The notes under the pieces: model-generated
What the model saw: only the letters and a program-made list of their open reading frames with translations
What the model was told of the DNA's origin: nothing
Database searches by the model: none
Made by a program: the position numbers and the translations under genes
Origin: a virus
Lineage: Duplodnaviria; Heunggongvirae; Uroviricota; Caudoviricetes
Virus record (IMG/VR): IMGVR_UViG_2563366800_000001
DNA: 15,498 nt
Direction: 5' to 3' (one strand)
Shown here: positions 1 through 15,498 of the stretch, one piece after another
Numbering within the stretch: the stretch's first letter is position 1
Layout of the letters: the number at the start of each line of letters is the position of its first letter

Positions 1-168
1 GCAATGGCTTCCATTAGTCTGATTCAACTGAAATTGCAGGCCGGGCGGAAGCTGATGCAGGCAGAGACCACCCGACTTAACACTGTGCTGGATTACATTG
101 ACGCGGTGACGGCAACAGATACCAGCACCGCGCCGGATGTCATCTGGCCTGAACTGCCGGAGGCGTAG
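1..168 (+). CDS. tail fibre assembly protein, C-terminal fragment (5' end lies left of the window)
   Basis: Frame +1 is open from base 1 to TAG at 166-168. Translation ends ...DTSTAPDVIWPELPEA, which matches the conserved C-terminal motif of lambdoid Tfa proteins. It converges on the opposite-strand tfa and overlaps its 3' end by 29 bp. Confidence 0.55.
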   Translation, partial: AMASISLIQLKLQAGRKLMQAETTRLNTVLDYIDAVTATDTSTAPDVIWPELPEA

Positions 169-559
169 GCCATTCAATATCGAGTGCTGTTAAAGTATTA
201 ATACGCATCAATAGCACGCGATATTTTTTCCATGCCAGTAACAGTTTCGTTTCATCATCTGTTGCCATACCTAAATCAACCGCATCCTGAAGCGGCGCTA
301 TTACATTCGTTGCCTCTGCTATCAGTGCAGATTTCTTTTCATCATTTATTAAGGCTAATTGTTCTGGTGTTGGAGAAGGACGGTCAACAATGACAGGGTG
401 ACCGTTCTCACCACAGGTAATCATTTTTGTTACACTCTGTGAGTTAATCAGTGTTTTCCACTCTGATTCCGAGATTTCCACTGCATCATCAGGAATATTG
501 GTGCCGTGAAATTCAGTCGAATAAAATCCGTTTGTCGATGCAGAATAAAAATATGACAT
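140..559 (-). CDS. tfa: tail fibre assembly protein (Tfa/U family)
   Basis: Track ORF 140..637 (-). Contains the Tfa-type N-terminal MSYFYSAS..GFY and C-terminal IAPLQDA..AWKKYRVLL..IEWP motifs. Start placed at the internal Met (557-559), 4 nt after the stop of the upstream tail-fibre cassette. Confidence 0.75.
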   Translation of the reverse strand: MSYFYSASTNGFYSTEFHGTNIPDDAVEISESEWKTLINSQSVTKMITCGENGHPVIVDRPSPTPEQLALINDEKKSALIAEATNVIAPLQDAVDLGMATDDETKLLLAWKKYRVLLMRINTLTALDIEWPTPPAVQAR

Positions 560-563
560 TTCG

Positions 564-974
564 TTAATATCCCATTGCAATGTAATACGCATCAGAAGAT
601 GCACCATATACTGAACCGGGCGACACTGTAATATCAAATCCAGTGTTATGGATATTTGTCGCCGATACAGTCGGCTGCCCTGACGCGCCAGTAACGTTCA
701 ATGTAACTACGACAGCAAGGACTCTTGAGAACGTCATCGGGAACGTCATCCCGTATGTTGAAGATGCATTCGGGGGGCTATTCAACATACCGCACTGTAA
801 AATTAATCCAGACGGAAATTTTTGCGCAGCAGCCGTTGCGGTATTACTTGACGCGAACAGGCTCATATCAGGTATCTGATTCGCCCCTGTACCTACATTC
901 CTTTTAGCTGCTTCTCCCAAACCAACGTTTTCGATAATGATCGTTAGTCGCTCAAATGGCATTATTCCCGCCAT
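564..974 (-). CDS. tail fibre C-terminal variable cassette (S'v-type, promoterless, inside the invertible segment)
   Basis: 136-aa ORF directly 5' (on the - strand) of tfa, with Gly/Ser/Thr/Ala/Asn-rich fibre-tip-like composition. An in-frame TAA lies immediately 5' of its first Met (975-977) and a crossover site (912-937) sits inside its first ~20 codons, as expected for a cassette that is only expressed after fusion to a constant fibre segment. Confidence 0.55.
   Translation of the reverse strand: MAGIMPFERLTIIIENVGLGEAAKRNVGTGANQIPDMSLFASSNTATAAAQKFPSGLILQCGMLNSPPNASSTYGMTFPMTFSRVLAVVVTLNVTGASGQPTVSATNIHNTGFDITVSPGSVYGASSDAYYIAMGY
912..937. other. site-specific recombination crossover site of the hix/gix/pix family (26 bp, two imperfect 12-bp half-sites around a central AA)
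   Basis: TTCTCCCAAACC AA CGTTTTCGATAA. Compare hixL as I recall it: TTCTTGAAAACC AA GGTTTTTGATAA. The reverse complement of the right half-site (TTATCGAAAACG) matches the family half-site TTATCaAAAACC at 11 of 12 positions. It lies 55 bp upstream of the invertase start, the position gixR/hixR-type sites occupy. Confidence 0.7.
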
Positions 975-991
975 TTAAAGTGAGTTTAACC

Positions 992-1546
992 ATGCTTATT
1001 GGCTATGTACGTGTATCAACAAATGACCAGAACACGGCATTACAGCGTAATGCGCTGGAATGTGCAGGATGTGAGCTGATTTTTGAAGACAAGATAAGCG
1101 GCAGAACCTCAGACAGACCCGGACTAAAACGGGTACTCAGAACGCTATCTGAAGGTGACACCCTCGTGGTCTGGAAGCTTGATCGCCTCGGACGCAGCAT
1201 GCGTCATCTGGTTGGACTGGTGGAAGAACTACGCGAGCGAGGTATCAACTTTAAAAGTCTGACTGACAGCATAGATACTTCATCGCCAATGGGGCGCTTC
1301 TTTTTTCATGTTATGGGGGCATTGGCCGAGATGGAACGTGAACTGATTGTTGAACGTACACGTGCAGGTCTGGCTGCTGCGCGAGCTGAGGGGCGCGTGG
1401 GAGGTCGAAGACCTAAGTTAACACCTGAACAGTGGGCGCAGGCTGGAAGATTGTTAGCGGCTGGCGAAACTCGTCAGAGGGTGGCCCTAATTTATGACGT
1501 CGGAATCTCAACTCTGTACAAACGATTCCCAGCATCTGACATATAA
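992..1546 (+). CDS. pin: serine DNA invertase of the Pin/Gin/Hin/Cin family
   Basis: Translation MLIGYVRVSTNDQNT...GDTLVVWKLDRLGRSM...SPMGRFFFHVMGALAEMEREL... is the canonical resolvase/invertase catalytic domain with the Ser-10 nucleophile context and a C-terminal helix-turn-helix. The track ORF starts at 956, but the family N-terminus begins at the Met at 992. Confidence 0.9.
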   Translation: MLIGYVRVSTNDQNTALQRNALECAGCELIFEDKISGRTSDRPGLKRVLRTLSEGDTLVVWKLDRLGRSMRHLVGLVEELRERGINFKSLTDSIDTSSPMGRFFFHVMGALAEMERELIVERTRAGLAAARAEGRVGGRRPKLTPEQWAQAGRLLAAGETRQRVALIYDVGISTLYKRFPASDI

Positions 1547-1873
1547 ATCATGATCACAAACGCGATCCAATGTTAGTTGTCAATGTGTCGCGTTTTGATT
1601 GGCGCGCGGCATCCAGGGTATTGAAGTTGTGCGTAATCATTGAGATCCCGTTATTTTTATCAATTTTTGTTGCTATCCGATCGCAAAAAAGCCACGTCAT
1701 ATGATCAGATAATTCTGATAATGATAGACGCTATTTAACACTTCACACGGTTTGTATACGGAAAAGCATTTTGCTTTTTGTATTCAATTTAGACAGAATT
1801 TTATTAATCATTTCAGGGTAATGGGGTGATGAGATGTTGCGTAACAGGGCCAGAAGGCTAGACTACAAAATAA

Positions 1874-2878
<1,005 letters not shown>

Positions 2879-3067
2879 CAAAAGCAATTTTTCCGGCTGT
2901 CTGTATACAAAAACGCCGCAAAGTTTGAGCGAAGTCAATAAACTCTCTACCCATTCAGGGCAATATCTCTCTTGCAGGTGAATGCAACGTCAAGCGATGG
3001 GCGTTGCGCTCCATATTGTCTTACTTCCTTTTTTGAATTACTGCATAGCACAATTGATTCGTACGAC

Positions 3068-3095
3068 GCCGACTTTGATGAGTCGGCTTTTTTTT
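3068..3095 (+). terminator. rho-independent terminator (7-bp GC-rich stem, 6-nt loop, T8 tract)
   Basis: GCCGACT-ttgatg-AGTCGGC followed by TTTTTTTT, about 190 bp downstream of the zntB stop. Confidence 0.55.
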
Positions 3096-3152
3096 GCCTG
3101 TTATTTATCAGCGTCTACCCTTTAAGAGTCCACCCAATGACCAGAGGGAAAT

Positions 3153-3326
3153 ATGACGACACTTATTTATTTGCAAATTCCTGTCCCTGAACCGATTCCT
3201 GGCGATCCTGTTCCAGTGCCCGATCCGATCCCTCGCCCGCAACCCATGCCTGACCCACCACCCGATGAAGAACCGATTAAATTGTCGCATCGTGAGCGTA
3301 GATCTGCGAGGATACGCGCCTGCTAA
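3153..3326 (+). CDS. candidate small protein / upstream ORF, proline-rich (57 aa; not in the ORF track, presumably below its size cut-off)
   Basis: ATG at 3153 preceded by AGAGGG at 3143-3148; TAA at 3324-3326. Own translation: MTTLIYLQIPVPEPIPGDPVPVPDPIPRPQPMPDPPPDEEPIKLSHRERRSARIRAC. Ends 30 nt before the dbpA start. Confidence 0.3.
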   Translation: MTTLIYLQIPVPEPIPGDPVPVPDPIPRPQPMPDPPPDEEPIKLSHRERRSARIRAC

Positions 3327-3355
3327 CTTTGCGTCGATGACCACGAGAATAGATT

Positions 3356-4729
3356 GTGACCGCTTTTTCTACCCTGAATGTTTTGCCTCCCGCCCAACTC
3401 ACGAACCTTAATGAGTTGGGTTATTTAACCATGACGCCGGTGCAGGCCGCCGCGCTTCCGGCGATCCTTGCCGGAAAAGATGTTCGCGTGCAGGCGAAAA
3501 CCGGCAGCGGCAAAACGGCGGCTTTTGGCCTCGGCTTGTTACAGCAAATTGATGCGTCGCTATTTCAAACCCAGGCTTTAGTGCTGTGTCCTACGCGTGA
3601 ACTGGCGGATCAGGTGGCAGGTGAATTGCGTCGGCTGGCGCGTTTTCTGCCAAATACCAAAATTTTGACGTTGTGCGGTGGTCAACCGTTCGGTATGCAG
3701 CGTGATTCGTTGCAACATGCGCCGCATATTATCGTGGCAACGCCGGGGCGTTTGCTGGATCACCTGCAAAAAGGCACGGTATCACTGGATGCGTTGAATA
3801 CGCTGGTGATGGATGAGGCCGACCGCATGCTGGATATGGGATTTAGCGATGCCATTGATGATGTCATCCGTTTTGCGCCTGCATCTCGACAGACGCTTCT
3901 GTTTTCGGCAACCTGGCCGGAAGCCATCGCTGCAATCAGCGGACGAGTGCAACGCGATCCTTTGGCGATTGAAATTGACTCAACAGATGCTTTGCCACCC
4001 ATTGAACAACAATTTTATGAGACATCCAGCAAAGGCAAAATTCCTCTGTTGCAACGGTTATTAAGCTTGCATCAGCCATCCTCTTGCGTGGTGTTTTGCA
4101 ATACCAAAAAAGATTGCCAGGCTGTCTGCGACGCGCTGAATGAAGTAGGGCAAAGTGCATTGTCATTACACGGCGATTTGGAGCAACGCGATCGCGATCA
4201 GACCCTGGTACGTTTTGCTAACGGTAGCGCCCGTGTACTGGTCGCGACTGATGTTGCTGCGCGTGGTCTGGATATTAAATCGCTTGAGCTGGTGGTGAAC
4301 TTTGAGCTGGCGTGGGACCCTGAAGTTCATGTACATCGCATCGGTCGTACAGCTCGTGCAGGAAATAGCGGTCTGGCGATCAGTTTCTGTGCTCCGGAAG
4401 AAGCACAGCGGGCCAATATCATTTCTGACATGTTGCAGATAAAACTTAACTGGCAAACGCCGCCAGCTAATAGTTCCATTGCGACGCTGGAAGCAGAAAT
4501 GGCAACGTTGTGTATCGATGGCGGGAAAAAAGCCAAAATGCGCCCGGGTGATGTATTAGGTGCACTGACAGGAGATATCGGGCTTGATGGCGCAGATATT
4601 GGCAAAATCGCCGTGCATCCGGCGCATGTCTATGTCGCGGTCCGTCAGGCTGTTGCTCATAAAGCATGGAAACAGTTACAGGGCGGGAAGATTAAAGGAA
4701 AAACGTGCCGGGTGCGGTTATTAAAATAA
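3356..4729 (+). CDS. dbpA: ATP-dependent RNA helicase DbpA (DEAD-box, 23S rRNA-dependent)
   Basis: 457-aa ORF with GTG start. Carries the Q motif, Walker A (AKTGSGKT), DEAD (VMDEAD), SAT and HRIGRTAR motifs plus the C-terminal RNA-binding domain. Confidence 0.9.
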   Translation: MTAFSTLNVLPPAQLTNLNELGYLTMTPVQAAALPAILAGKDVRVQAKTGSGKTAAFGLGLLQQIDASLFQTQALVLCPTRELADQVAGELRRLARFLPNTKILTLCGGQPFGMQRDSLQHAPHIIVATPGRLLDHLQKGTVSLDALNTLVMDEADRMLDMGFSDAIDDVIRFAPASRQTLLFSATWPEAIAAISGRVQRDPLAIEIDSTDALPPIEQQFYETSSKGKIPLLQRLLSLHQPSSCVVFCNTKKDCQAVCDALNEVGQSALSLHGDLEQRDRDQTLVRFANGSARVLVATDVAARGLDIKSLELVVNFELAWDPEVHVHRIGRTARAGNSGLAISFCAPEEAQRANIISDMLQIKLNWQTPPANSSIATLEAEMATLCIDGGKKAKMRPGDVLGALTGDIGLDGADIGKIAVHPAHVYVAVRQAVAHKAWKQLQGGKIKGKTCRVRLLK

Positions 4730-4776
4730 TGAAATGTTGAATTGCCGGGTGCAAGAGTAAACATCTTATTCGGGAT

Positions 4777-4850
4777 TGCCGGATGCGACGCTGGCCGCGT
4801 CTTATCCGGCCTCCATAAGAGTAGCCCGATACGCTTGCGCATCGGGCGCT
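4777..4850. repeat. two REP (repetitive extragenic palindromic) units forming a BIME-like element between the convergent dbpA and ttcA genes
   Basis: Unit 1 (4777-4814): TGCCGGATGCGACGCTGGCCGCGTCTTATCCGGCCTCC with stem GCCGGAT/ATCCGGC. Unit 2 (4823-4850): GCCCGAT...ATCGGGC palindrome. Confidence 0.6.
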
Positions 4851-4857
4851 ATCCTGG

Positions 4858-5793
4858 TTATTTCACTTCAACCACATTCAGCCGTAACTCATCCAACTGA
4901 TTTTCATCTTCTTCTGGCTGCCAGCCCGCCGGTTGTAGTGGGATCTCTTCGCGATCAAACGCCAGATCACCCCCGTTAACCACTTCAGAACCGTGGGTGA
5001 TGCCTTTGAAATCGAACAGGTTGGTATCGCACAGATGCGACGGCACCACATTCTGCATCGCGCTGAACATCGTCTCGATACGCCCTGGATAACGTTTATC
5101 CCAGTCACGCAACATGTCAGCAATCACCTGACGTTGCAGGTTAGGCTGTGAACCGCACAGGTTGCACGGAATAATCGGGAACGCTTTTGCATCGGCAAAT
5201 CGCTGAATATCTTTCTCGCGGCAGTAGGCCAGCGGACGAATAACGATATGTTTGCCATCATCGCTCATCAGTTTCGGAGGCATACCTTTCATCTTACCGC
5301 CGTAGAACATATTTAAGAACAACGTTTGCAGGATATCGTCACGATGGTGACCCAACGCGATCTTCGTCGCCCCCAGTTCCGTTGCGGTACGATAAAGGAT
5401 ACCGCGACGAAGGCGAGAACACAGTGAGCAAGTGGTTTTGCCCTCTGGAATCTTCTCTTTCACGATACCGTAAGTATTCTCTTCAACAATCTTGTACTCA
5501 ACGCCCAGCTTTTCAAGATACTCGGGCAGAACGTGTTCCGGGAAGCCCGGTTGCTTTTGATCGAGGTTAACAGCCACCAGCGAAAAATTGATTGGCGCGC
5601 TTTGCTGCAAATTGCGCAGAATCTCCAGCATGGTATAGCTGTCTTTACCCCCGGAGAGGCAAACCATGATGCGATCGCCTTCTTCAATCATATTGAAGTC
5701 AGCAATGGCTTCGCCCACGTTACGACGCAGACGTTTTTGTAATTTGTTCAGGTTGTATTGTTCTTTCTTTGTAATTTGTTGATTTTCTTGCAT
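4858..5793 (-). CDS. ttcA: tRNA 2-thiocytidine(32) synthetase TtcA
   Basis: 311-aa ORF with the PP-loop ATPase motif (CLSGGKDS) and paired CxxC cysteines (CSLC, CNLC) typical of TtcA. Confidence 0.9.
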
Positions 5794-5844
5794 TATTTCA
5801 GTTCTCTGGTACTAAATGGGGCAAATTGGGGGCAAACTTTGCAA

Positions 5845-7080
5845 CTACGATAACCGCGCATTCAACATGGCTATCTGTTCGTCGTTCATGTCATCAATCC
5901 ACATACCGTAAATTTCATACACCATCTGCGCAGTTTCATGCCCCATTTGGCTGGCTATAAATGCCGGGTTCGCTCCTGCCGTCAACAGCCAGCAGGCAAA
6001 AGTATGCCGCGTATGGTACGGATTACGGCGGCGAATACCAGCACGTTTTACTGCTGCATTCCACCTTGCCCCCAAACTGCTTACCGAGTAATAAGGTTTT
6101 TGTTTTCCGTTACACACCCTGGGCATGAAAACAAAATGCAGTTTTTGCTTTTCGGTTCTGCCGTACTCCCGATGATAAAAGGTGATTTCGCTTTTGCGAT
6201 GATGCCCGGTCAGTTTGTATTGCTCCTTCAGTGCTTCAAGAGCAGGCTGCAGTAGTGTTACTGTTCGGATCCCGGCATTTGTTTTTGGGGGACCGAACAT
6301 ATCAAGTATCGTCAGGTTTCTTCTGACATTCACTATTCCCTTTTCGAGATCCACATCCTCCCACGCCAGAGCTGCCAGTTCCCCGTGACGAAGTCCTGAG
6401 TAAACGGCAAATTTCCACAAGTTCTGGCTCTGTCCTTTTTCACTTTCCATTAATGCATTGAATTCTGTTTTAGATAACGGATCAGGCTTTATTCTGTTTC
6501 GCTGTAATTTTTTTACTCCTTCAAATGGTTTGGTTGATATAAATCCCGACTGATACGCAAAACGCAACAGCGAACAGAGCAGGGCGATATAGTTATCAAC
6601 TGTGCGCACGGTTCTTCCTTTTTTGTTGGATCTTGGATTATCCAGGTAAAGCGTTTCTCCATGCAGCAGTTCATTCCGGTAGTTTAAGATATCGCTATAA
6701 CGAATATGTGATATCGGGGTACTTTCACAAATTATTATTCTGAGTGTTTTTAATTGTGATTTCGTTTTCTTCATTGTGTTTGTTGTTAACTCTGTCTCTT
6801 TAATTTTTGTCCAGATATCACAAAGCTCTCCGAACGTTTTTATGACTCTCGTTGTCACCATTTTTGCCCCAGTGCTGGACTGGGGAAAACGTCTTAAATA
6901 CTCAAATTCACCGGAGTTTATTTCATGAACTATCAGCGCTCTTAAATTTCCGGCCTTTTTAATATTACTGTTTGTAATCTCCCAGCCTTTTAATGTTTCC
7001 CGACATCGTTTTCCTCGAAACATGAACCAGATGCGAATGTATCTACCTCTAATCTCGACACCTGTTGGTAATTTAGACAT
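5845..7080 (-). CDS. intR: prophage tyrosine integrase (Rac-type IntR)
   Basis: 411-aa ORF with the C-terminal catalytic region (...RHTFACWLLTAGANP...HETAQMVYEIYG...) of lambda-family integrases, immediately beside the ttcA 5' end. Its AT-rich N-terminal half contrasts with the flanking core genes. Confidence 0.9.
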   Translation of the reverse strand: MSKLPTGVEIRGRYIRIWFMFRGKRCRETLKGWEITNSNIKKAGNLRALIVHEINSGEFEYLRRFPQSSTGAKMVTTRVIKTFGELCDIWTKIKETELTTNTMKKTKSQLKTLRIIICESTPISHIRYSDILNYRNELLHGETLYLDNPRSNKKGRTVRTVDNYIALLCSLLRFAYQSGFISTKPFEGVKKLQRNRIKPDPLSKTEFNALMESEKGQSQNLWKFAVYSGLRHGELAALAWEDVDLEKGIVNVRRNLTILDMFGPPKTNAGIRTVTLLQPALEALKEQYKLTGHHRKSEITFYHREYGRTEKQKLHFVFMPRVCNGKQKPYYSVSSLGARWNAAVKRAGIRRRNPYHTRHTFACWLLTAGANPAFIASQMGHETAQMVYEIYGMWIDDMNDEQIAMLNARLS

Positions 7081-7081
7081 A

Positions 7082-7297
7082 TCATGAGTCTTTGATAAAC
7101 TGATTTATCTTTGGATAGTTGTACCAGATAATCCCTCGTTTGCTGTCTGGCTTACCTAAAGGAGATACTCGTTTGAAGTGGAAGCCCTCCACCCAACAGT
7201 TCTGGCGGTATGCTTCAATTTGTCTGGCCCCCAGACCAGTGCGAAGCATCAGGCCGTATTCAACCATCCACTCTTCATTAAAGATTACTTGTGCCAT
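7082..7297 (-). CDS. xisR: excisionase (Rac XisR/YdaQ-like)
   Basis: Small ORF directly upstream of int, ending 1 nt before the int start. Start placed at [10 protein letters not shown]... (71 aa); the track ORF begins further upstream at 7321. Confidence 0.7.
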
Positions 7298-7375
7298 CGC
7301 ATCACCTCTGGCAGGTGCCAATGTTAGACTGAAATTGACGCCCGATGTTGATTATTAATAATCAGCTATGAAGTT

Positions 7376-7597
7376 TTAATTTGAATACAATGCAATTCTC
7401 GAGGACTGAAGTTTCTCGCAATTAAAATTTATCAGTTTTACTTTCTGCTCTCTGGAAACGCCTGCTTCTTTTTTACCTGAGAGCATTTTTTCGCATTCTG
7501 ATTTCGTTAGTTTAGATTTTGAATATCTTGTCCAGTTAGTAGGAGTGCCACCTTCCTTTTCAATAGTGGCGGTAATTTTATACATGAACACCTCCAT
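7376..7597 (-). CDS. ydaC: small prophage protein of unknown function (YdaC-like)
   Basis: Track ORF 7376..7657 (-), Lys/Glu-rich. The true start is uncertain: candidate Mets give 7585, 7597 or 7657; the longest overlaps ralR. Confidence 0.45.
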   Translation of the reverse strand: MEVFMYKITATIEKEGGTPTNWTRYSKSKLTKSECEKMLSGKKEAGVSREQKVKLINFNCEKLQSSRIALYSN

Positions 7598-7772
7598 TAT
7601 TATTTCCAGTGGTTCGTTTATTCCATCTTTCGAGTGCTTCTTTTTCACTTCCACCATAACCGGTTCGGGATTCGCATCCGTTACACTTCGCTCGGTAATA
7701 TCCTGAAATGGCTTTCACCGTTACTGATGGACAACCACAAAATGGACATGGTTTAACATTGTCATATCTCAT
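7578..7772 (-). CDS. ralR: RalR/Lar restriction-alleviation protein (reported DNase toxin of a type I toxin-antitoxin pair)
   Basis: 64-aa product MRYDNVKPCPFCGCPSVTVKAISGYYRAKCNGCESRTGYGGSEKEALERWNKRTTGNNNGGVHV with a four-cysteine zinc-ribbon-like pattern. Start at the internal Met of track ORF 7578..7811. Confidence 0.8.
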   Translation of the reverse strand: MRYDNVKPCPFCGCPSVTVKAISGYYRAKCNGCESRTGYGGSEKEALERWNKRTTGNNNGGVHV

Positions 7773-7800
7773 AATTTTTCTCATAAAAAATATTTCAAGT

Positions 7801-7819
7801 TGGCGGTGCATTACACCGC
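7801..7819 (-). terminator. stem-loop downstream of recT (possible weak terminator or processing site)
   Basis: GGCGGTG-catta-CACCGCC perfect 7-bp inverted repeat located 10 nt after the recT stop. On the - strand the T-run begins about 12 nt after the stem, so terminator geometry is marginal. Confidence 0.3.
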
Positions 7820-7828
7820 CAGGCTGAA

Positions 7829-8638
7829 TTATTCCTCTGAATTATCGATTACACTGTATTCCCCGGTTAATACAGAGGAATCTGCAGGATCGATTGTCAG
7901 TGGTTCCTTTTCATCCATTGATACTGCACGCTGGATCTCAATTGATACGGGCAGATATTTGAACAGGCGACGAATAGCCGTTTTCTTTGCCATTTCTTCC
8001 CAGTGAGTTACCCACGGCCCGTTATTACCAGCTTTACTCAGGCTGCGCACCAGCTCAATCTGTTTGCGCGTCATAACTTCAAACTGAGTACCTCCGTCTT
8101 TCAGTCTTGCGACAGCATAGACGTGGGTAACCGGGGCATCTTCGTTTTCTCCCGGGCGGTGTATTAACTTTTCATCAAGGCCAAATTCGAAGCTAAACTC
8201 GTCACCTTCACGGACAACACGGGCTGACAGGCTGGCGATTTGACCAGAACGGCGAGCCAGATCAATCATGCCGCGATAGCCAATGATTAGCTGAACGTTC
8301 TTTTTACCGCTCTTTTCGTTTTTATTACCAAAAGGCAGTAAATATGCATGACCGAGGGCGCTACCTGGCTCAAGTCCGAGCTGTGAACACTGTACGATCG
8401 CACTGACAAAACTCATAGTGTCACAGTTTCCTAACGCCGGAACTTTACGAATTTCTGTGGTGGCGATACGGATCATACGTTCAGCCGTCATATGGCGTGG
8501 AAGAGCTGCTGCCAGTTGCTCTTTCATTGATGGCTGGTTAATAAAACTAATCACGTCGCTATTTTTAACTGCTGCTGGTGCACGGTTTCCCTGAGTTTTT
8601 TGCAGATCGGCTTTTGCGATTGGTGGTTGCTTAGTCAT
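7829..8638 (-). CDS. recT: RecT single-strand annealing protein
   Basis: 269-aa product starting [18 protein letters not shown]... The start overlaps the recE stop by 8 nt, the known recE-recT coupling arrangement. Confidence 0.9.
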
Positions 8639-10814
8639 TTGCATATTCCTTAGCCCAGCGGGGCAGTGATAATGTCTTAATAGCTGGCCATTCATCGGTA
8701 TTCAGGCAGTCAGACAGGGTTCGCAGATTGCGGTGATATTCCTGTTGACCTGCCAGTTTTGCTTCTTCGCCCATCATGAAAATTTCAACCGGATAACGTC
8801 CGCATTCAATAGTTGTGCTGGCAACCAGAAAAACGAAAGTTGGCTGCACTCCAAACTGTGCTTCATAACCGTCACTGTAGAATGCATCCTGAACGTGATA
8901 GCGGTAGTCGTAATAAGCGGTTTTGAATCGTTGAATATCCGCCGTAGTTTTCACGTCCATGATCCAGTGAAATTCAGGGATAATTTTGTCCGGACGGCAC
9001 CGACACAAAATTCCTGTTTCAGGATCTTCCCAGTAAATTGATGATTCAGCGTGTCCGGCGCTTTCAACAAGCCATTGCCCCAGCGGCAAAGCCATAACGC
9101 TTTGATACATGAGTTCAATTTTCCGGCCTTCTTCCGCAGTGATAACCGTTTTTCCTGTGCTTGCGCATTCCATCAGAAACGCTTTCTCTTCTTCTTTTCC
9201 GGCGTTTGTACGGCGGTTAAATTCAGGTGCTACGATAAAGCGGTTACTGAATTCTTCCGGTTCAAGTACCCGGCAGTGGAAAGCAGTTCCTAAATCGAGC
9301 GTTTTTGTCTTTGTGGTGTCCACGGGGGCATTTTTACGCCACAAATATAGTGCAGGAGTATCAGCAATGTCATCGAGCTGAGACTTACTGATACCGGGAC
9401 CCGCGTGGTAATTCTCATTCGAAATTCCGTAATAAATACCTGGCTCTATGTCTTCTACGATTACGGGATCTGCGACTTCGCCAGTTTCATCACTGCAATC
9501 GCGATGCGGATCGCTGCCAGCATTCTCATTGTGCGGATGTTCAGCGCCTTCCATTTCCTCCGGATCATTTTCCTTAGCTTCAACCTGACTCTCTTCATCG
9601 AATGTTTCCTGGTATGTTGCGTCGCCCATCACCGCACCACAGTCAGGGCAGTTATCCCCGCCAGTCTGGCCGCAGGCATTGCAGGCTATTTCCGGTTCCT
9701 GTTGCACTACTGGCTCAGGTTGATTCATATCTGGGCTGGTTTTTTCCGTTTCTGGCTGGTTCTGGTACACACAATCGCGAGTCTGGATCCCCTTTACCCA
9801 TTTCGGATCGTTCGGGTCGCTAATTCCGTCAACAAATTCACCACGTGATGCAGCAAGCAATTTATCGGCATCGACAGGATTTTTTGATGGAATGTTTTTC
9901 CGGGCTTCATGGAGTTCTGCCCGCAGTTCCTGATATTTCGCATCAACAGAATTTACCTGTGACTGAGCATCCAGCGGCTGCGTGTCCTGATGATGTTCAG
10001 TTGCGTCCGGTTCCATTGTTTCAGCCTCTCCCTGTTCAACTGCCGTTGTTCCAGATGGTTGCGGTTTTTCTTCATCATCCTGTTTTCCTTCTTCTGTTAC
10101 TCGCTGCGGCATCGGGGCAGAGGAGCGACCGCAGGCAATATCCACGATTTCCGGATCAGGGTTGGCATGATCGGTTTCAGTCAGTACTTTGTTCAGATAT
10201 TCAGTGACGTGCGCGGGGATGACCTCGATCCCAATTGGTGCTTCTTTTACGGACGCAACCACGATGGCGCGGGAATAATCCAGCCCGCCAGGCATGGTGA
10301 TGAATTTGTCGCGGAAAACAGAAAAGGGCGGTTTATTTTCAGCGATAATTTCCTCAATGCGTTTAGCGTGTGCCGGATGAAGGTTATAGATGTCCAGATC
10401 CATTGAACGGGCCAGTACGCCAGTGGCTACGTCGCGCGCCAGTGACGTCAGATCGTGTACGAAACCTTCGCCGCGATCGGTGAGGTTTCCGCCGCCAGCA
10501 TTAGCACCGGAAGCCGTGCGAGTGATGTGTGAAACACGATTACCCTTCATCCACTCTTTTGTCAGCAGTCCTCGATCGGTGTAGTCAGCGTTCAGGTATG
10601 CTTCGAAAAAAGCAGTTATCAGTCCCAGGTTTGAATTACCAGGATTAGGGAAAACTTTGTCAGTGTCACGAACCAGTTTGTGGAGTTCGCGAATTTCCAG
10701 CGGGTCGAGCAGGCTGGTTTTGTGGGAAACAGCCAGGGCAGTAACAGCCGGTAGTTCTTCAGCCCGAGCAATGTGTAATGCCTGGAGTCCGTCGCGTGAA
10801 ACGTGCGTTACAGG
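8631..10814 (-). CDS. recE: exonuclease VIII RecE, 5'-truncated (no native start; about 140 N-terminal codons missing relative to the 866-aa reference as I recall it)
   Basis: RecE-like translation runs from ...[21 protein letters not shown]... to ...[12 protein letters not shown]. The first 34 codons of track ORF 8631..10916 (TTG start) are simply the antisense of the endolysin fragment. Confidence 0.8.
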
Positions 10815-11142
10815 AAAAGACATCATGCTCGGTAAAACGTATACCAAAGCAGAATGCAAAACACTCTTGAATAAAGACCTTGCCACTGTCGCCAGACAAA
10901 TTAACCCGTACATCAAAGTCGATATACCGGAAACAACGCGCGGCGCTCTTTACTCATTCGTTTACAACGTGGGTGCTGGCAATTTCAGAACATCGACGCT
11001 TCTTCGCAAAATAAACCAGGGCGATATCAAAGGCGCATGTGATCAGCTACGTCGCTGGACATATGCTGGCGGTAAGCAATGGAAAGGTCTCATGACTCGT
11101 CGTGAGATTGAGCGTGAAATCTGTTTGTGGGGTCAGCAATGA
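10798..11142 (+). pseudogene. phage endolysin (lysozyme), 5'-truncated fragment
   Basis: Homology starts mid-protein at ...[59 protein letters not shown]...CLWGQQ, which I recall as the C-terminal two-thirds of a P21-type endolysin. Upstream residues of track ORF 10657..11142 are antisense recE. Confidence 0.7.
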
Positions 11143-11603
11143 ACAGAGTAACCGCGATTATCTCCGCTCTGGTTATCTGCATCATCGTCTGCCTGTCATG
11201 GGCTGTTAATCATTACCGTGATAACGCCATTACCTACAAAGCCCAGCGCGACAAAAATGCCAGAGAACTGAAGCTGGCGAACGCGGCAATTACTGACATG
11301 CAGATGCGTCAGCGTGATGTTGCTGCGCTCGATGCAAAATACACGAAGGAGTTAGCTGATGCGAAAGCTGAAAATGATGCTCTGCGTGATGATGTTGCCG
11401 CTGGTCGTCGTCGGTTGCACATCAAAGCAGTCTGTCAGTCAGTGCGTGAAGCCACCACCGCCTCCGGCGTGGATAATGCAGCCTCCCCCCGACTGGCAGA
11501 CACCGCTGAACGGGATTATTTCACCCTCCGGGAACGACTGGTAATGATGCAGGCCCAACTTGAAGGTGCTCAGCAATACATAACCGAGCAGTGTTTAAAG
11601 TAA
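11139..11603 (+). CDS. rzpR: Rz inner-membrane spanin (i-spanin)
   Basis: ATG overlaps the endolysin stop (ATGA). Product has an N-terminal transmembrane helix ([20 protein letters not shown]) followed by a coiled-coil-rich periplasmic domain. The track ORF starts 12 nt upstream at GTG. Confidence 0.85.
11359..11544 (+). CDS. rzoR: Rz1 outer-membrane lipoprotein spanin (o-spanin), embedded in the +1 frame of Rz
   Basis: 61-aa ORF wholly inside Rz. Signal peptide with lipobox VVGC, followed by a proline-rich mature region ([16 protein letters not shown]). Confidence 0.8.
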
Positions 11604-11685
11604 AATCTTAACTACAATATGATTCATTTTGATGATTGTTTCATAAGGAACAGTGAAGTAAGATCTAAGAGGAGTTAAATTTTAT

Positions 11686-11722
11686 ACAGTATAATCATAA
11701 TATTGCAGCAAGGTGGTTATAA
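11686..11722 (+). promoter_or_regulatory. candidate sigma70 promoter region upstream of trkG (AT-rich, two TATAAT-like hexamers)
   Basis: cagTATAATcataat and ggtTATAATtg lie within 60 bp upstream of the trkG ATG. No clear -35 element, so this is pattern-only. Confidence 0.25.
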
Positions 11723-11740
11723 TTGAAAGAATATTTAGAT

Positions 11741-13198
11741 ATGAATACATCTCATGTAAGAGTTGTTACTCATATGTGTGGGTTCCTGGTTTGGCTCTAT
11801 AGTCTTTCAATGTTGCCACCAATGGTTGTAGCATTGTTTTATAAAGAAAAAAGCCTGTTTGTTTTCTTTATAACTTTCGTTATATTTTTTTGCATTGGTG
11901 GCGGAGCGTGGTATACAACTAAGAAATCTGGTATTCAATTACGTACCCGTGATGGGTTTATTATAATTGTAATGTTTTGGATTTTGTTTTCTGTTATTAG
12001 TGCATTCCCTTTATGGATTGACTCAGAACTTAATTTAACGTTCATTGATGCTCTGTTTGAAGGGGTTTCTGGAATAACAACAACAGGAGCAACTGTAATT
12101 GATGATGTTAGTTCATTACCTCGGGCATATTTGTACTATCGGTCACAGTTAAATTTTATAGGTGGTTTAGGAGTTATTGTTCTGGCGGTTGCTGTATTGC
12201 CATTATTGGGTATTGGTGGTGCAAAGCTTTATCAGTCAGAAATGCCGGGGCCATTTAAGGATGACAAACTCACTCCCCGCCTGGCCGATACGTCACGGAC
12301 ACTGTGGATAACTTATTCTTTATTAGGTATTGCTTGTATTGTCTGTTATAGACTTGCAGGAATGCCTTTGTTTGATGCTATTTGTCACGGGATTTCCACA
12401 GTTTCGCTTGGTGGTTTCTCAACTCATAGCGAGAGTATCGGATATTTTAATAACTATTTGGTTGAGCTGGTGGCTGGTTCTTTTTCCCTGCTATCGGCTT
12501 TCAACTTCACTCTTTGGTATATTGTTATTAGCAGGAAAACGATAAAACCTTTAATCAGAGATATTGAACTTCGTTTCTTTCTGTTAATAGCCTTAGGGGT
12601 GATCATTGTTACCTCTTTCCAGGTCTGGCATATAGGTATGTATGACTTGCATGGAAGTTTTATTCATTCGTTTTTTCTTGCCAGCTCCATGCTCACTGAT
12701 AATGGTTTAGCTACGCAGGATTATGCAAGTTGGCCCACGCACACGATAGTGTTTTTGCTGTTGTCAAGTTTCTTTGGGGGATGTATAGGTTCAACTTGTG
12801 GTGGAATTAAGTCACTTCGATTTCTTATACTTTTCAAACAAAGCAAACACGAGATAAATCAGCTTTCTCATCCCAGAGCGTTGTTGAGTGTAAATGTAGG
12901 AGGGAAGATAGTTACAGATCGTGTAATGAGGTCTGTATGGAGTTTCTTTTTTCTTTATACTCTCTTCACGGTGTTTTTTATACTGGTGTTAAATGGTATG
13001 GGATATGATTTTCTTACATCATTTGCAACAGTGGCTGCATGTATTAATAATATGGGATTAGGTTTTGGGGCTACTGCATCGTCATTCGGAGTGCTTAATG
13101 ACATTGCAAAATATTTAATGTGCATAGCTATGATTCTTGGTCGCCTTGAAATTTATCCTGTTATTATATTGTTTTCAGGTTTTTTTTGGCGCTCCTAA
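11741..13198 (+). CDS. trkG: potassium uptake protein TrkG (TrkH/TrkG family), prophage cargo
   Basis: Start at MNTSHVRVVTHMCGF... (track ORF begins 18 nt upstream at TTG). Polytopic membrane protein with repeated glycine-containing selectivity-filter-like segments (TTTGATV, GGFSTH, GLGFGA). Strongly AT-rich compared with its neighbours. Confidence 0.85.
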   Translation: MNTSHVRVVTHMCGFLVWLYSLSMLPPMVVALFYKEKSLFVFFITFVIFFCIGGGAWYTTKKSGIQLRTRDGFIIIVMFWILFSVISAFPLWIDSELNLTFIDALFEGVSGITTTGATVIDDVSSLPRAYLYYRSQLNFIGGLGVIVLAVAVLPLLGIGGAKLYQSEMPGPFKDDKLTPRLADTSRTLWITYSLLGIACIVCYRLAGMPLFDAICHGISTVSLGGFSTHSESIGYFNNYLVELVAGSFSLLSAFNFTLWYIVISRKTIKPLIRDIELRFFLLIALGVIIVTSFQVWHIGMYDLHGSFIHSFFLASSMLTDNGLATQDYASWPTHTIVFLLLSSFFGGCIGSTCGGIKSLRFLILFKQSKHEINQLSHPRALLSVNVGGKIVTDRVMRSVWSFFFLYTLFTVFFILVLNGMGYDFLTSFATVAACINNMGLGFGATASSFGVLNDIAKYLMCIAMILGRLEIYPVIILFSGFFWRS

Positions 13199-13335
13199 TA
13201 TATGGCTGATTTATAATTGTGAGTTTAATATTATGTTGACTCACTCATTGATCCAATACCTAACTTTACCAGCAACACCTCCGCCCCCAGTAGCACTGGC
13301 TGCTGGGGTGCGTTTTATTCATAAAGCAAGGCTGT

Positions 13336-14130
13336 ATGAGCGAGAAATTAAAGATAGTCTATCGCCCATTACAAGAATTGTCACCGTATGCGCACAATGC
13401 CAGGACGCACAGTACTGAGCAGGTGGCACAACTGGTAGAAAGTATTAAGCAATTCGGCTGGACTAATCCGGTGCTGATTGACGAAAAGGGCGAAATTATT
13501 GCGGGTCACGGTCGTGTTATGGCGGCTGAAATGCTCAAAATGGATTCTGTTCCGGTCATTGTTCTGTCTGGCCTGACGGATGAGCAGAAAAAGGCGTACC
13601 GCCTGGCAGATAATCGCCTGCCGATGAATGCTGGCTGGGATGAAGATCTGTTGCGGATGGAGCTGTCGGACCTAATCAATGCTGATTTTGATGTCTCCCT
13701 GACAGGCTTCATCCCGACAGAAATTGATGAACTGTTGACGGATGTTTTGCCCGGTACAGGAAATGAGGAGGAGCCGTATACGACGAAAATTGATACGCCT
13801 GTTTATGAGCCGTCGGGCGGTAAACCGGATATCAGTGAACTGTACGACGATACGAAAACTCAGGAGCTGATCAGCCGGATACGTTCGGCGTCCCTTGATC
13901 CTGATATTGAGAAATTCCTCCTGTGTGCGGCAGAACGTCACACAGTGTTTAATTTCAGCAGAATTGCGGACTATTACGCTCATGCCCCCGCTGAAATTCA
14001 GTGCCTTTTCGAGGAGTCGGCGCTGGTGATCATTGATTATCAGCAGGCTATTGAAAATGGATTTGTCCGAATGACGCAGCGCATGGTGGAGATCATGCAT
14101 GGCGGGGAGGAGGAGGAGGAATATGCGTGA
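13336..14130 (+). CDS. ynaK: ParB-like nuclease-domain protein (ParB/Srx N-terminal fold, YnaK-like)
   Basis: 264-aa ORF. N-terminus has the ParB-box-like region (NPVLIDEKGEIIAGHGRVMAA) followed by ...YRLADNRL. The C-terminus is acidic and ends in EEEEEYA. Confidence 0.7.
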   Translation: MSEKLKIVYRPLQELSPYAHNARTHSTEQVAQLVESIKQFGWTNPVLIDEKGEIIAGHGRVMAAEMLKMDSVPVIVLSGLTDEQKKAYRLADNRLPMNAGWDEDLLRMELSDLINADFDVSLTGFIPTEIDELLTDVLPGTGNEEEPYTTKIDTPVYEPSGGKPDISELYDDTKTQELISRIRSASLDPDIEKFLLCAAERHTVFNFSRIADYYAHAPAEIQCLFEESALVIIDYQQAIENGFVRMTQRMVEIMHGGEEEEEYA

Positions 14131-14569
14131 TGATTTTTGCGCCTTTATTCTGACTCACGGGCGACCGGACAAAGTTCTGACTTACCGGACGTTGCGTCGT
14201 GCTGGCTATACCGGGAAAATTTTTATCGTTGTTGATGATGAAGATAAGACACGGCATCAGTACATGGCTGAATTTGGTGAACAGGTGGTGAAGGGCGTGA
14301 GCTTCCTGCTCCGTCTGACCGTAACAGCGGATGACGGCAGTGAGCGGCTGGTCAGCACGGCCCGGACGACGGAAACCACATACCGCTTCACGCAACTGGC
14401 GCTGGGGAACTACAGGCTGACAGTCCGGGCGGTAAATGCGTGGGGGCAGCAGGGCGATCCGGCGTCGGTATCGTTCCGGATTCCTGAAGCGCCTGACAGC
14501 CCCCACCATTACCAGCGGTGGCAGTCCTCCGGTATTTTCCCTGACATCAGACGGAAAGCTGACCGCTAA
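14123..14569 (+). pseudogene. composite remnant: about 57 codons of an unknown gene (YdaY-like) fused in frame to an internal fragment of a lambda J-like tail-tip gene, then frameshifted
   Basis: MRDDFCAFILTHGRPDK...GEQVV, then (from about 14290) KGVSFLLRLTVTADDGSERLVSTARTTETTYRF...[22 protein letters not shown], which I recall as lambda J internal sequence. After about 14481 the frame runs into non-J sequence and stops at 14569. Confidence 0.6.
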
Positions 14570-14804
14570 AAATGCGGATATCAGTGGTAGTGTGAATGCG
14601 AACTCAGGAACGCTCAACAATGTCACGATTAACCAGAACTGTACGATTAAGGGCATGCTGGAGGCGACTCAGGTCAGAGGTGACTTCGTTAAAGCTGTAT
14701 CCAAATCATTTCCGAAACAGGCTGGTACGTGGGGTAACACGGAAACACCAAACGGGACGGTTAACCGCGCTGACAGACAATACACAGGGGGCAACAGGTC
14801 TTGA
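14481..14804 (+). pseudogene. second lambda J-like fragment (C-terminal region) in a different frame
   Basis: [50 protein letters not shown]... matches lambda J near its C-terminus as I recall it. It is in the frame of track ORF 14436..14804, shifted relative to fragment 1 at about 14481. Confidence 0.6.
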
Positions 14805-15498
14805 GTTATACGAGGTGTATAACAACGGATATCCAACAGCGTATGGAAATATCATTCACCTGAAAGGGATGACAGCCGTTGGCGAAGGTGAGTTACTCAT
14901 CGGCTGGAGGGGGACAAGCGGGGCTCATGCTCCGGCATTTATTCGTTCACGACGGGATACGACCGACGCAAACTGGTCGCCGTGGGCGCAGCTTTACACC
15001 TCGGCTCATCCTCCTGCAGAGTTTTATCCAGTCGGTGCACCAATCCCGTGGCCATCAGATACCGTTCCGTCTGGCTATGCCCTGATGCAGGGGCAGACTT
15101 TTGACAAATCTGCATACCCGAAACTTGCAGCGGCTTATCCGTCAGGCGTGATCCCTGATATGCGTGGCTGGACGATTAAGGGCAAACCTGCCAGTGGTCG
15201 GGCCGTATTGTCTCAGGAACAGGACGGCATTAAATCGCATACCCACAGCGCCAGCGCATCCAGTACGGATTTGGGGACGAAAACCACATCGTCGTTTGAT
15301 TACGGCACTAAATCCACGAATAACACTGGTGCGCATACCCATAGTTTAAGTGGTAGCACGAATGCAGCTGGTAATCACAGCCATAGAGATGGCCGTCGAT
15401 TTAACCCCAGTGTTTTTAAAGATACTTATCAATATGGTTATACAAGCTCAGGTCAAAATACCTGGGGTGTACAAGGCTCAGTAGGTATGTCTACGGGG
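14770..15498 (+). CDS. side tail fibre protein, C-terminal region (partial; runs past the window end; 5' boundary approximate)
   Basis: Own translation of the frame starting at 14791: ...[39 protein letters not shown]...[24 protein letters not shown]...[15 protein letters not shown]...[19 protein letters not shown]..., with repeated His-x-His boxes typical of lambda Stf / T4 gp37-type fibres. Open to base 15498; incomplete ORFs are not in the track. Confidence 0.65.

Follow-up and report, generated by a model that had tools for sequence, protein, structure and literature searches.

Architecture of the recE–lysozyme junction

The locus described here raises a question of origin: how did two genes on opposite strands of a Rac prophage come to lose their 5' ends at the same point, and what did the prophage lose with them? 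The window—i.e., the whole 15,498-nt stretch of DNA that was analysed—is recognizable as Rac, with the attachment-site gene ttcA (4858–5793) followed by intR and xisR at the left end, as in Escherichia coli K-12, and with recE–recT and trkG sequences near-identical to those of the K-12 prophage. The left-arm block adjoining ttcA (5845–7772, minus strand) retains intR (5845–7080) and xisR (7082–7297), both intact, as well as rcbA (7376–7585) and ralR (7578–7772), with coordinates transferred from the locus annotation of strain PCP06171 at an offset of 1701. An intact recT gene (7829–8638, minus strand) overlaps the 3' end of a truncated recE (recE', 8631–10811, minus strand), which meets, head to head, a fragment of an RrrD-type lysozyme gene (rrrD', 10809–11142, plus strand). 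To the right of the scar, the window carries a full-length, rzpD-type Rz spanin gene (11139–11603, plus strand), with Rz1 (rzoD, 11359–11544) embedded in it, and an intact gene for the potassium transporter TrkG (11741–13198, plus strand), a conserved, host-useful component of Rac. Further scars were observed to the right of trkG.

The preliminary description had placed the loss of the 5' parts of both divergent genes at a single point between 10780 and 10840, and did so correctly: both are truncated at 10809–10811. In a base-by-base comparison with the Rac prophage of strain APEC_AN-25, in which both genes are intact, the match on the recE side stops at 10811 and the match on the lysozyme side starts at 10809; the two truncated genes thus abut with no spacer and with three nucleotides in common. 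This trinucleotide, TAC, is the sole sequence common to both reference sides, so the crossover lies within it (with flanking bases, the match is 5/6, TAC[C/A]GG). On the recE side, codons 1–140 are gone and the 3' 2,181 nt (codons 141–866 plus the stop codon) are kept, and on the lysozyme side codons 1–55 are gone, leaving codons 56–165 and the last nucleotide of codon 55. The join contains no inserted bases, with both flanks collinear with the intact reference and one contiguous interval absent, and neither foreign DNA nor an IS element—as would mark an IS-mediated adjacent deletion—was found between 10780 and 10840.

The sequence shared at the join had conditionally been put at about 15 nt; the exact base comparison reduces it to the 3 nt of TAC. 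Taken alone, so short a match argues only weakly for a microhomology-mediated mechanism, because random junctions in the same sequence reach at least 3 nt in 5.3% of cases (P = 0.053). Microhomologies of similar length occur at other Rac junctions discussed below (3 nt in allele C, 4 nt in allele B and 2 nt in K-12). Replication slippage, end joining and topoisomerase error are all candidates for the joining reaction.

An active endolysin of this type would possess a complete domain, the catalytic Glu/Asp/Thr residues and a SAR segment. The plus-strand frame ending in WGQQ corresponds to the C-terminal 110 aa of the lysozyme and starts at T56—without the N-terminal membrane (SAR) segment and without E35, D44 and T50, which we take to be the catalytic residues by analogy with R of phage P21. 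Consistently, the Pfam Phage_lysozyme match (PF00959) begins only at profile position 26 of 125, positions 1–25 being absent.

Extent and content of the lost interval

The preliminary description placed the scar within Rac, and the alignment to K-12 across 10780–10840 is indeed not collinear. Strain MG1655 shares 99.94% identity with the window over 1612–10814 and 99.5% over 11159–13589, and it lacks the 344 bp in between (10815–11158), which comprise the 3' part of the lysozyme gene and the 5' end of Rz. K-12, which had served as the reference Rac, carries an independent deletion of its own, and these 344 bp rule it out as the ancestral template. The K-12 and KTE107 lineages (the window is identical to strain KTE107; see below) instead descend, each through a deletion of its own, from a larger Rac whose lysis cassette was complete, and inferring from K-12 what is 'missing' understates the loss.

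We turned to Rac copies in which both genes are intact, to which both flanks of the window align at 99.87–99.92% identity, with one interval absent. Positions 1612–10814 align to 3670–12872 of the APEC_AN-25 locus and positions 10809–13272 to 33338–35801, such that the difference between the flank offsets gives an absent interval of 20,471 bp. The equivalent interval measures approximately 13.5 kb in SW07091 and 19.9 kb in LR-03, i.e., 13.5–20.5 kb across the three intact references. The loss is thus larger than the 'several kb' initially proposed, because K-12, itself deleted, is not the template. The IS copies present in the references (IS1 and IS421) sit inside this interval.

Within the window, racC, ydaE, kilR, sieB, ydaF/G, racR, ydaS–V and the ydaW fragment, as well as the holin gene essD and the N-termini of RecE and RrrD, were undetectable by blastn and by tblastn (E ≤ 0.01). 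The absence of racC, kilR, sieB, racR and ydaS–ydaW, noted earlier, is hence borne out, and so is the conclusion that the remnant has no repressor or immunity region and no Kil, since no such gene is detectable. The interval in the references, whose Rac copies carry two different immunity modules, also holds replication, cargo, antiterminator-region and holin genes.

A single deletion as the probable origin of the scar

The scar is a real, routine product of prophage decay, most likely one deletion of roughly 13–20 kb. We favor, with a probability of about 88%, a single intra-prophage deletion by illegitimate recombination that left an inert Rac remnant. In this scenario, homology-poor recombination would have fused codon 141 of recE with codon 55/56 of the lysozyme gene at TAC, and the one event would have removed the center of Rac, including the 5' end of recE, racC, ydaE, kilR and sieB. 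The same deletion would have taken the repressor and the cro/cII-like immunity module, the replication, cargo and antiterminator-region genes, the holin gene and the first 55 endolysin codons. The lysis cassette no longer works: the holin is gone, the endolysin has been cut off from its catalytic N-terminal part and, of the lysis proteins, the Rz/Rz1 spanins alone survive. What is left is a fixed, inert remnant without immunity, Kil, ydaS/T-type early genes, replication genes or a working lysis cassette, which keeps int/xis, ralR, recT, trkG and the nuclease domain of RecE, and the scar has since been inherited in a lineage now seen in dozens of assemblies.

Published work on Rac fits such an event. 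The racR gene is essential unless ydaS–T are removed, and most strains no longer carry the Rac toxin genes (PMC5700373). Since racR is not losable while ydaS–T stay, deletion of the whole immunity region is a viable kind of event, and the window offers a natural example consistent with the published constraint that loss of racR requires the simultaneous loss of ydaS–T. In the same survey, recE and trkG are conserved, kilR and ydaS have been lost from most strains and ydaS never occurs without racR (PMC5700373).

The most serious alternative, although we consider it unlikely, is that at least two deletions, one after another, led to the present junction, e.g., with a K-12-like loss occurring first. 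Only the final joining event leaves its mark at a junction, and any succession of deletions ending at these two points would look identical; moreover, Rac decays repeatedly and independently, as the 14-kb ydaW'/rzpR' scar of K-12, the additional scars that the window carries rightward of trkG and a possible secondary 33-nt loss in strain CFSAN061772 illustrate, and in more than 50% of strains half of the prophage is gone (PMC5700373). Against this, a K-12-type intermediate is excluded because lysozyme and Rz sequence absent from K-12 persists in the window, and searches of 5,426 complete genomes returned no intermediate. In addition, a first step removing racR would have needed the removal of ydaS–T too (PMC5700373).

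Inheritance of the junction and its relation to other alleles

The window is 100% identical to the sequence of E. coli KTE107 over all 15,498 nt. An identical junction (hereafter, junction A, the recE'–lysozyme' join of the window) was found in the complete genome of PCP06171, which differs from the window in positions 1–1611 and at three SNPs, in the metagenome contig SKEU01002638.1 and in ten further assemblies sampled, and the junction-specific, 730-aa RecE' protein is encoded on 39 contigs and listed in 59 index blocks. In the PCP06171 chromosome, the order abg–ttcA–Rac–uspF-ompN is kept. The survey of related genomes suggested in the preliminary description thus located the junction in complete, scaffold-level and metagenomic assemblies. 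Carriers lie up to 6 SNPs apart in 13.2 kb and differ in downstream structure, and the deletion therefore predates their divergence. The junction is inherited, not a product of chance or of assembly, and the scar is carried by a lineage of dozens of assemblies.

We found no prior description of junction A in a literature search. As a single-locus marker, the scar cleanly identifies one E. coli lineage, that of KTE107, PCP06171 and their relatives, for which both the junction string and the RecE' protein beginning MSFPVTHV are diagnostic.

Two further recE–lysozyme junction alleles were identified, one clearly independent (junction C, in E. coli 18AR0366 and HVH 98) and one a singleton (junction B, in CFSAN061772). 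Junction C, like A, is a head-to-head recE'–lysozyme' fusion in Rac with a 3-nt microhomology (TAT in C), inherited in tens of assemblies (its 657-aa RecE was found on 37 contigs and its chimeric lysozyme on 32). Compared with A, its breakpoints are shifted 212 nt further into recE and 108 nt upstream in the lysozyme gene, and neither allele is thus derivable from the other. The lysozyme of C also retains the catalytic region, unlike that of A, and annotation shows it as an intact protein of 159 aa. Gene callers make plausible proteins from such scars—the 730-aa 'exodeoxyribonuclease 8' at junction A and the 159-aa 'lysozyme' of allele C being cases in point. Homeologous in-register recombination between recE and lysozyme was rejected as the process behind the three alleles, whose offsets differ (20,471, 20,504 and approximately 20,575 bp).

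Junction B bears on whether recE breaks repeatedly at one hot spot, with B arising independently of A at a break- or pairing-prone site at codons 140–141. The recE boundary of B coincides with that of A to within 1 nt, with lysozyme joined 33 nt further on, at TACC; B is a singleton, and it lacks two markers common to the ten sampled A carriers, i.e., 9354 A (synonymous) and 4926 C. Among local SNPs, compared for strains that are all at least 99.9% identical in the chromosomal flanks, A and B differ at approximately nine sites in 8.4 kb, with no shared derived alleles and with site 4926 conflicting. A 731-aa RecE' of allele B, read from an alternative start codon, had no match in an exact-protein look-up in the collection. 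Yet removing from A the 33 nt that lie between two TAC repeats (10809–10811 and 10842–10844) gives B exactly, as expected from a secondary slippage deletion, and two independent events with left ends within 1 nt and right ends 33 nt apart in 13–20 kb would be very improbable. Only two SNPs oppose common descent, and recombination could account for them; furthermore, the clearly independent allele C breaks recE 212 nt away. We therefore regard independence of B as improbable, and slightly more doubtful still is the broader proposal that the recE site (GTTAC/CGG) is a recurrent breakpoint at which some non-chance cause repeatedly yields recE'–lysozyme' fusions in Rac. In the third lineage, C, recE was independently fused to the same lysozyme half. 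Should A, B and C all be independent, possible causes would be a break-prone site, selection, or the early-left and late-right arms lying physically side by side; selection, if real, would favor a repressor-free, N-terminally truncated RecE'–RecT module.

Coding capacity and expression of recE'–recT

A minus-strand reading frame (8631–10916) encodes RecE from PVTHVSRDG onward, and from V141 on the product is identical to the RecE of SW07091. RecE' keeps a complete PDDEXK nuclease domain at its C-terminus (PF12684, positions 1–222 of 233, E = 3e-28), whereas the N-terminal Exonuc_VIII domain (PF06630) is matched only at profile positions 165–203 of 203. Relative to the full-length, 866-aa RecE, both the N-terminal domain and the native expression signals—including the promoter and operator region—are missing, and in the near-identical locus of PCP06171 the PGAP/RefSeq annotation marks recE and the lysozyme gene as pseudogenes ('incomplete; missing N-terminus'). 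The frame has acquired a new 5' end (10812–10826, minus strand) antisense to lysozyme codons, where in-frame ATG ATG codons (10826–10821) fuse MMSFP to V141 and where gene callers start 'exodeoxyribonuclease 8' proteins of 730 and 731 aa (EOW25293.1 and PAS61443.1). No recognizable Shine-Dalgarno sequence precedes either ATG, and RecE' proteins from alternative starts (761, 760 and 749 aa) had no match in the exact-protein look-up. A crude consensus scan that included terminators returned three promoter-like sites facing recE', no excess over shuffled sequences (1.6 ± 1.3). Two weak leftward promoter-like sites were observed at 11209–11181 and 11544–11515. The recT gene relies on transcription through recE', and because the repressor and the native leftward early promoter are both lost, recE'–recT is most likely silent.

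These features weigh on the possibility that the deletion was kept as a natural sbcA-like allele, freeing recE'–recT from RacR and providing a new ATG for constitutive RecET, a reading that we consider quite improbable. The antisense lysozyme sequence does create the in-frame ATGATG, recT is intact, the nuclease domain (residues 564–866) suffices genetically (PMC11611040), sbcA mutations activate recET (PMC9504249) and recE ranks among the best-conserved Rac genes (PMC5700373). Nevertheless, the native early promoter was deleted along with the repressor, upstream promoter-like sites are no more frequent than in shuffles, neither ATG has a recognizable Shine-Dalgarno sequence and the 33-nt loss in allele B removes the ATGs altogether. 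Finally, inter-prophage recombination bringing in the lysozyme arm of another lambdoid prophage (DLP12 or Qin type), or an assembly error spanning a repeated lysis cassette, is scarcely credible: rrrD-like lysozyme genes are multi-copy in E. coli (a median of 2–3 matching places per genome) and several short-read contigs stop inside the lysozyme fragment, but the arm runs unbroken into Rz and the Rac trkG—as in 718 genomes with lysozyme–Rz–trkG at this locus—the flanking chromosome is syntenic in the closed PCP06171 genome, and independent assemblies, whether complete, scaffold-level or metagenomic, show the junction again.

Comparison with known Rac deletions and prophage decay

Laboratory sbcA mutations resemble the window in that they alter the recE 5' region, or sequence upstream of it, and thereby free recET from prophage repression; some sbcA alleles are deletions or fusions, and N-terminally shortened RecE can be functional. 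However, sbcA alleles are defined by expressed ExoVIII, whereas in the window the native promoter is deleted. The ydaW'/rzpR' junction of K-12 is a further counterpart, as it resides in the same prophage at the same ttcA site and arose by an internal deletion that removed approximately 14 kb, left a 2-nt overlap, truncated two unrelated genes and destroyed the lysis cassette. Its endpoints are not those of junction A, and it arose independently: K-12 retains full recE, racC, kilR, sieB, racR and ydaS–V, all lost from the window (recE only in its 5' part), and it lacks the lysozyme gene and the first 20 nt of Rz, whereas the window keeps the 3' part of the former and all of the latter. Viewed more broadly, cryptic lambdoid prophages decay by losing toxic and lytic genes while keeping those useful to the host; the pattern in the window is the same, with nothing qualitatively different, and its scar is one specific allele of this general process.

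Structure of the recE-lysozyme junction

The window is a segment of the E. coli chromosome in which the Rac prophage occupies ttcA: scaffold KE137202.1 of strain KTE107 matches all 15,498 nt at 100% identity, and the complete genome of PCP06171 differs at 3 positions over window 1612-15498. With gene coordinates taken from the PCP06171 annotation (shift -1701), zntB is followed by dbpA, ttcA (4858-5793, minus strand), intR (5845-7080, minus), xisR, rcbA, ralR, recT (7829-8638, minus), recE' (8631 to about 10814, minus), the lysozyme gene rrrD' (about 10810-11142, plus), Rz/Rz1 (11139-11603, plus) and trkG (11741-13198, plus)—with recE' and rrrD' each flagged by PGAP as 'incomplete; missing N-terminus'.

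Beyond the Rac core, window 1-1611, where dgcM would be expected, belongs to a Mu-like transposable prophage and forms its right end, with a Gin/Pin-type invertase (956-1546) and two tail-fibre-assembly genes in an invertible-segment layout. Its terminus (...GGCA) lies at 1611 and the insertion is 29 nt into dgcM, the surviving 5' end of which occupies 1612-1640 (minus strand). A Mu-like prophage was found at this dgcM site in none of the 5,426 complete genomes; in strain EC09, a 98.6% identical prophage end is located in yiiF, adjoining baseplate and DNA-circularization genes. More decay scars occur to the right of trkG (13272-15498), where ynaK is annotated as truncated and the tail-fibre genes survive only as fragments that are 90-93% identical to other Rac copies; APEC_AN-25 has no equivalent of 13757-14761, and 13745-14290 matches SW07091 and LR-03.

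A single reference was used for both flanks of the join, i.e., the fuller Rac prophage of APEC_AN-25 (L006), in which recE (10689-13289) and rrrD (33174-33671) are both intact. The recE flank aligns L006 3670-12872 with window 1612-10814, and the lysozyme flank aligns L006 33338-35801 with window 10809-13272. Base by base, identity to the reference stops at window 10811 on the recE side and begins at 10809 on the lysozyme side. The window reads ...GTGCGTTAC|AGGAAAAGAC... at the join, against GTTACCGGTTT in the reference recE and CATACAGGAAA in the reference lysozyme gene, leaving a microhomology of 3 nt, TAC (5/6 with one mismatch allowed), rather than the ~15 nt conditionally estimated in the preliminary description. 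The overlap seems to be 5 nt at the protein level because RecE Pro140 is accidentally recreated as CCT. Among 200,000 simulated random joins in the same two regions, 5.3% had a microhomology of at least 3 nt (1.7% at least 4 nt), so this junction (allele A), taken by itself, supports a microhomology-dependent mechanism only weakly; such a join is typical of illegitimate recombination. The join contains no IS element, which rules out an IS-adjacent deletion. The best-supported account is that one illegitimate-recombination deletion produced allele A; the scar itself is passive. A multi-step deletion history is possible, as a junction keeps a record of the last join only.

The deletion removed codons 1-140 of RecE (K-12 RecE reads ...E138 K139 P140 V141 T142 H143 in this region) and codons 1-55 of RrrD. 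Both truncations are confirmed by Pfam: the lysozyme fragment spans profile positions 26-125 of 125, and RecE' retains a whole PDDEXK nuclease domain with its N-terminal Exonuc_VIII domain reduced to positions 165-203 of 203. The missing lysozyme portion includes the N-terminal hydrophobic segment and E35, D44 and T50, which we take to be catalytic residues by analogy with the phage P21 endolysin. No part of the interval in K-12 or APEC_AN-25 was found anywhere in the window by blastn, and tblastn (E<=0.01) detected in it neither RacC, YdaE, KilR, SieB, YdaF/G, RacR, YdaS/T/U/V or the YdaW fragment, nor the holin EssD or the N-termini of RecE and RrrD; the reported absence of racC, kilR, sieB, racR and ydaS-ydaW thus holds.

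K-12 Rac as a sister form

Pairwise alignment with K-12 MG1655 (L002), proposed earlier as a check, revealed a 6,230-bp interval (L002 14516-20745) missing from the window. K-12 in turn has no counterpart for the 344 bp at window 10815-11158, comprising the 3' part of the lysozyme gene and the first 20 nt of Rz, and, when compared with LR-03 (L010), its ydaW'/rzpR' boundary (L002 20740-20750) proves to be the scar of a 14.0-kb deletion, with L010 position 6340 joined to 20345 and a 2-nt overlap. This deletion is separate from and independent of that in the window. It follows that each of the two Rac forms arose independently from a larger Rac whose holin-endolysin-spanin cassette was complete, which makes K-12 a sister derivative. 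How much is missing varies with the reference Rac chosen: the interval is 20,471 bp in APEC_AN-25, where it includes cargo genes and three IS copies, about 13.5 kb in SW07091, and about 19.9 kb in LR-03, whose racR-ydaS-ydaT module is of the K-12 type. The preliminary description was accordingly right in kind—base-level comparison and Pfam bear out a deletion scar with mutually truncated recE and endolysin genes—and wrong on the microhomology length, on the loss ('several kb', against 13-20 kb in Rac copies with both genes intact) and on K-12 as the ancestral template.

A complete lysis cassette adjoins trkG in 718 of the 5,426 complete genomes, and 1,435 have an intact recE 5' end adjoining racC. 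In many genomes the match to the recE-5'/racC query is confined to its first 328 nt (L002 14300-14627, recE codons ~103-211), at 83-93% identity and annotated as 'exonuclease', which suggests a mosaic module boundary inside recE, ~115 nt from the window breakpoint and not coincident with it. In one genome (EC06), recE homology ends 49 nt into this query, in what looks like yet another truncation.

Distribution of the junction and related alleles

Among the complete genomes, the exact junction occurs in PCP06171 only; it is also present on metagenome contig SKEU01002638.1, which has 1 mismatch over 7,185 nt. The minus-strand recE' frame gains ATG ATG (10826-10821), antisense to lysozyme codons Asp-Ile-Met, and gene callers therefore annotate junction-specific proteins of 730 aa (EOW25293.1 of E. 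coli KTE107, beginning MSFPVTHV...) and 731 aa (PAS61443.1). In the public collection, the 730-aa form is on 39 contigs and in 59 index blocks. In all ten carriers with DNA read, the junction is identical and the alleles 9354 A (synonymous), 4926 C and 13113 A are shared, while carriers differ by up to 6 SNPs in 13.2 kb and in structure right of trkG. The deletion is thus inherited and older than their diversification, and the survey of related genomes suggested earlier recovered the same junction in many assemblies. Over 13.9 kb, GCA_002284655.1 differs from the window solely by three G-to-T changes within 13 nt (14910-14922), which may reflect a sequencing artefact or a small patch of conversion.

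Two further recE-lysozyme joins were identified. Allele B, a singleton from CFSAN061772 (L004 6480-6550, corresponding to window 10809-10844) whose Rz contains an IS2 element, shares the recE boundary of A, but the 33 nt that separate two TAC triplets in the window (10809-10811 and 10842-10844) are missing, with a TACC overlap relative to the references. The simplest reading is that a secondary slippage deletion turned A into B. Independent origins of A and B at one and the same recE nucleotide would fit the lack of A-clade marker alleles in B (9354 C, 4926 A) and flanks no closer to A than those of K-12, but the SNPs are few and recombination is possible, and we consider recurrence unlikely. 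In allele C (18AR0366), recE is joined 212 nt deeper and the lysozyme gene 108 nt further upstream than in A, at TAT; neither A nor C is derivable from the other. Its products are a 657-aa RecE (37 contigs) and a 159-aa chimeric lysozyme (32 contigs), the latter (L005 6260-6739) annotated by RefSeq as an intact 'lysozyme', WP_044501964.1. The first ~13 residues of this protein are antisense recE; it has lost most of the N-terminal membrane segment and retains the catalytic region. A and C affect the same pair of genes, a mild coincidence that is not treated as significant because the search could detect only junctions resembling the query.

Functional consequences and tolerance of the deletion

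The functional consequences are in part inferred: the Rac locus would provide no immunity or superinfection exclusion, no Kil protein, no prophage replication and no lysis. That it has no immunity region and cannot express Kil, as previously proposed, agrees with the lack of tblastn matches to racR and kilR in the window (E<=0.01). Excision may still be possible, since int and xis are retained. The nuclease domain of RecE (residues 564-866) suffices genetically (PMC11611040) and is kept in recE'-recT, which have lost the native leftward promoter and the repressor. A consensus scan gave 3 promoter-like sites facing recE' against 1.6 +/- 1.3 in shuffles, i.e., no excess, and no Shine-Dalgarno sequence precedes the new ATGs; on these grounds, recE'-recT are most likely silent. 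A natural counterpart of the sbcA mutations that activate recET (PMC9504249) appears very improbable.

Published Rac genetics explain why deletion of this span is tolerated: deletion of racR requires that ydaS(-T) and the intergenic region they share be removed with it, natural genomes carrying ydaS always carry racR as well, and the Rac toxin genes are lost in most strains, recE and trkG being best conserved (PMC5700373). Two rivals, a chimeric assembly and recombination with the lysis cassette of another prophage, are dismissed, as the lysozyme-Rz-trkG arm is unbroken, as in 718 genomes, synteny in the closed PCP06171 chromosome extends from abg to ompN, and the junction was recovered independently in many assemblies. 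The phenomenon is very well known, and junction A, whose two pseudogenes RefSeq had already flagged, is an allele of it not described before.
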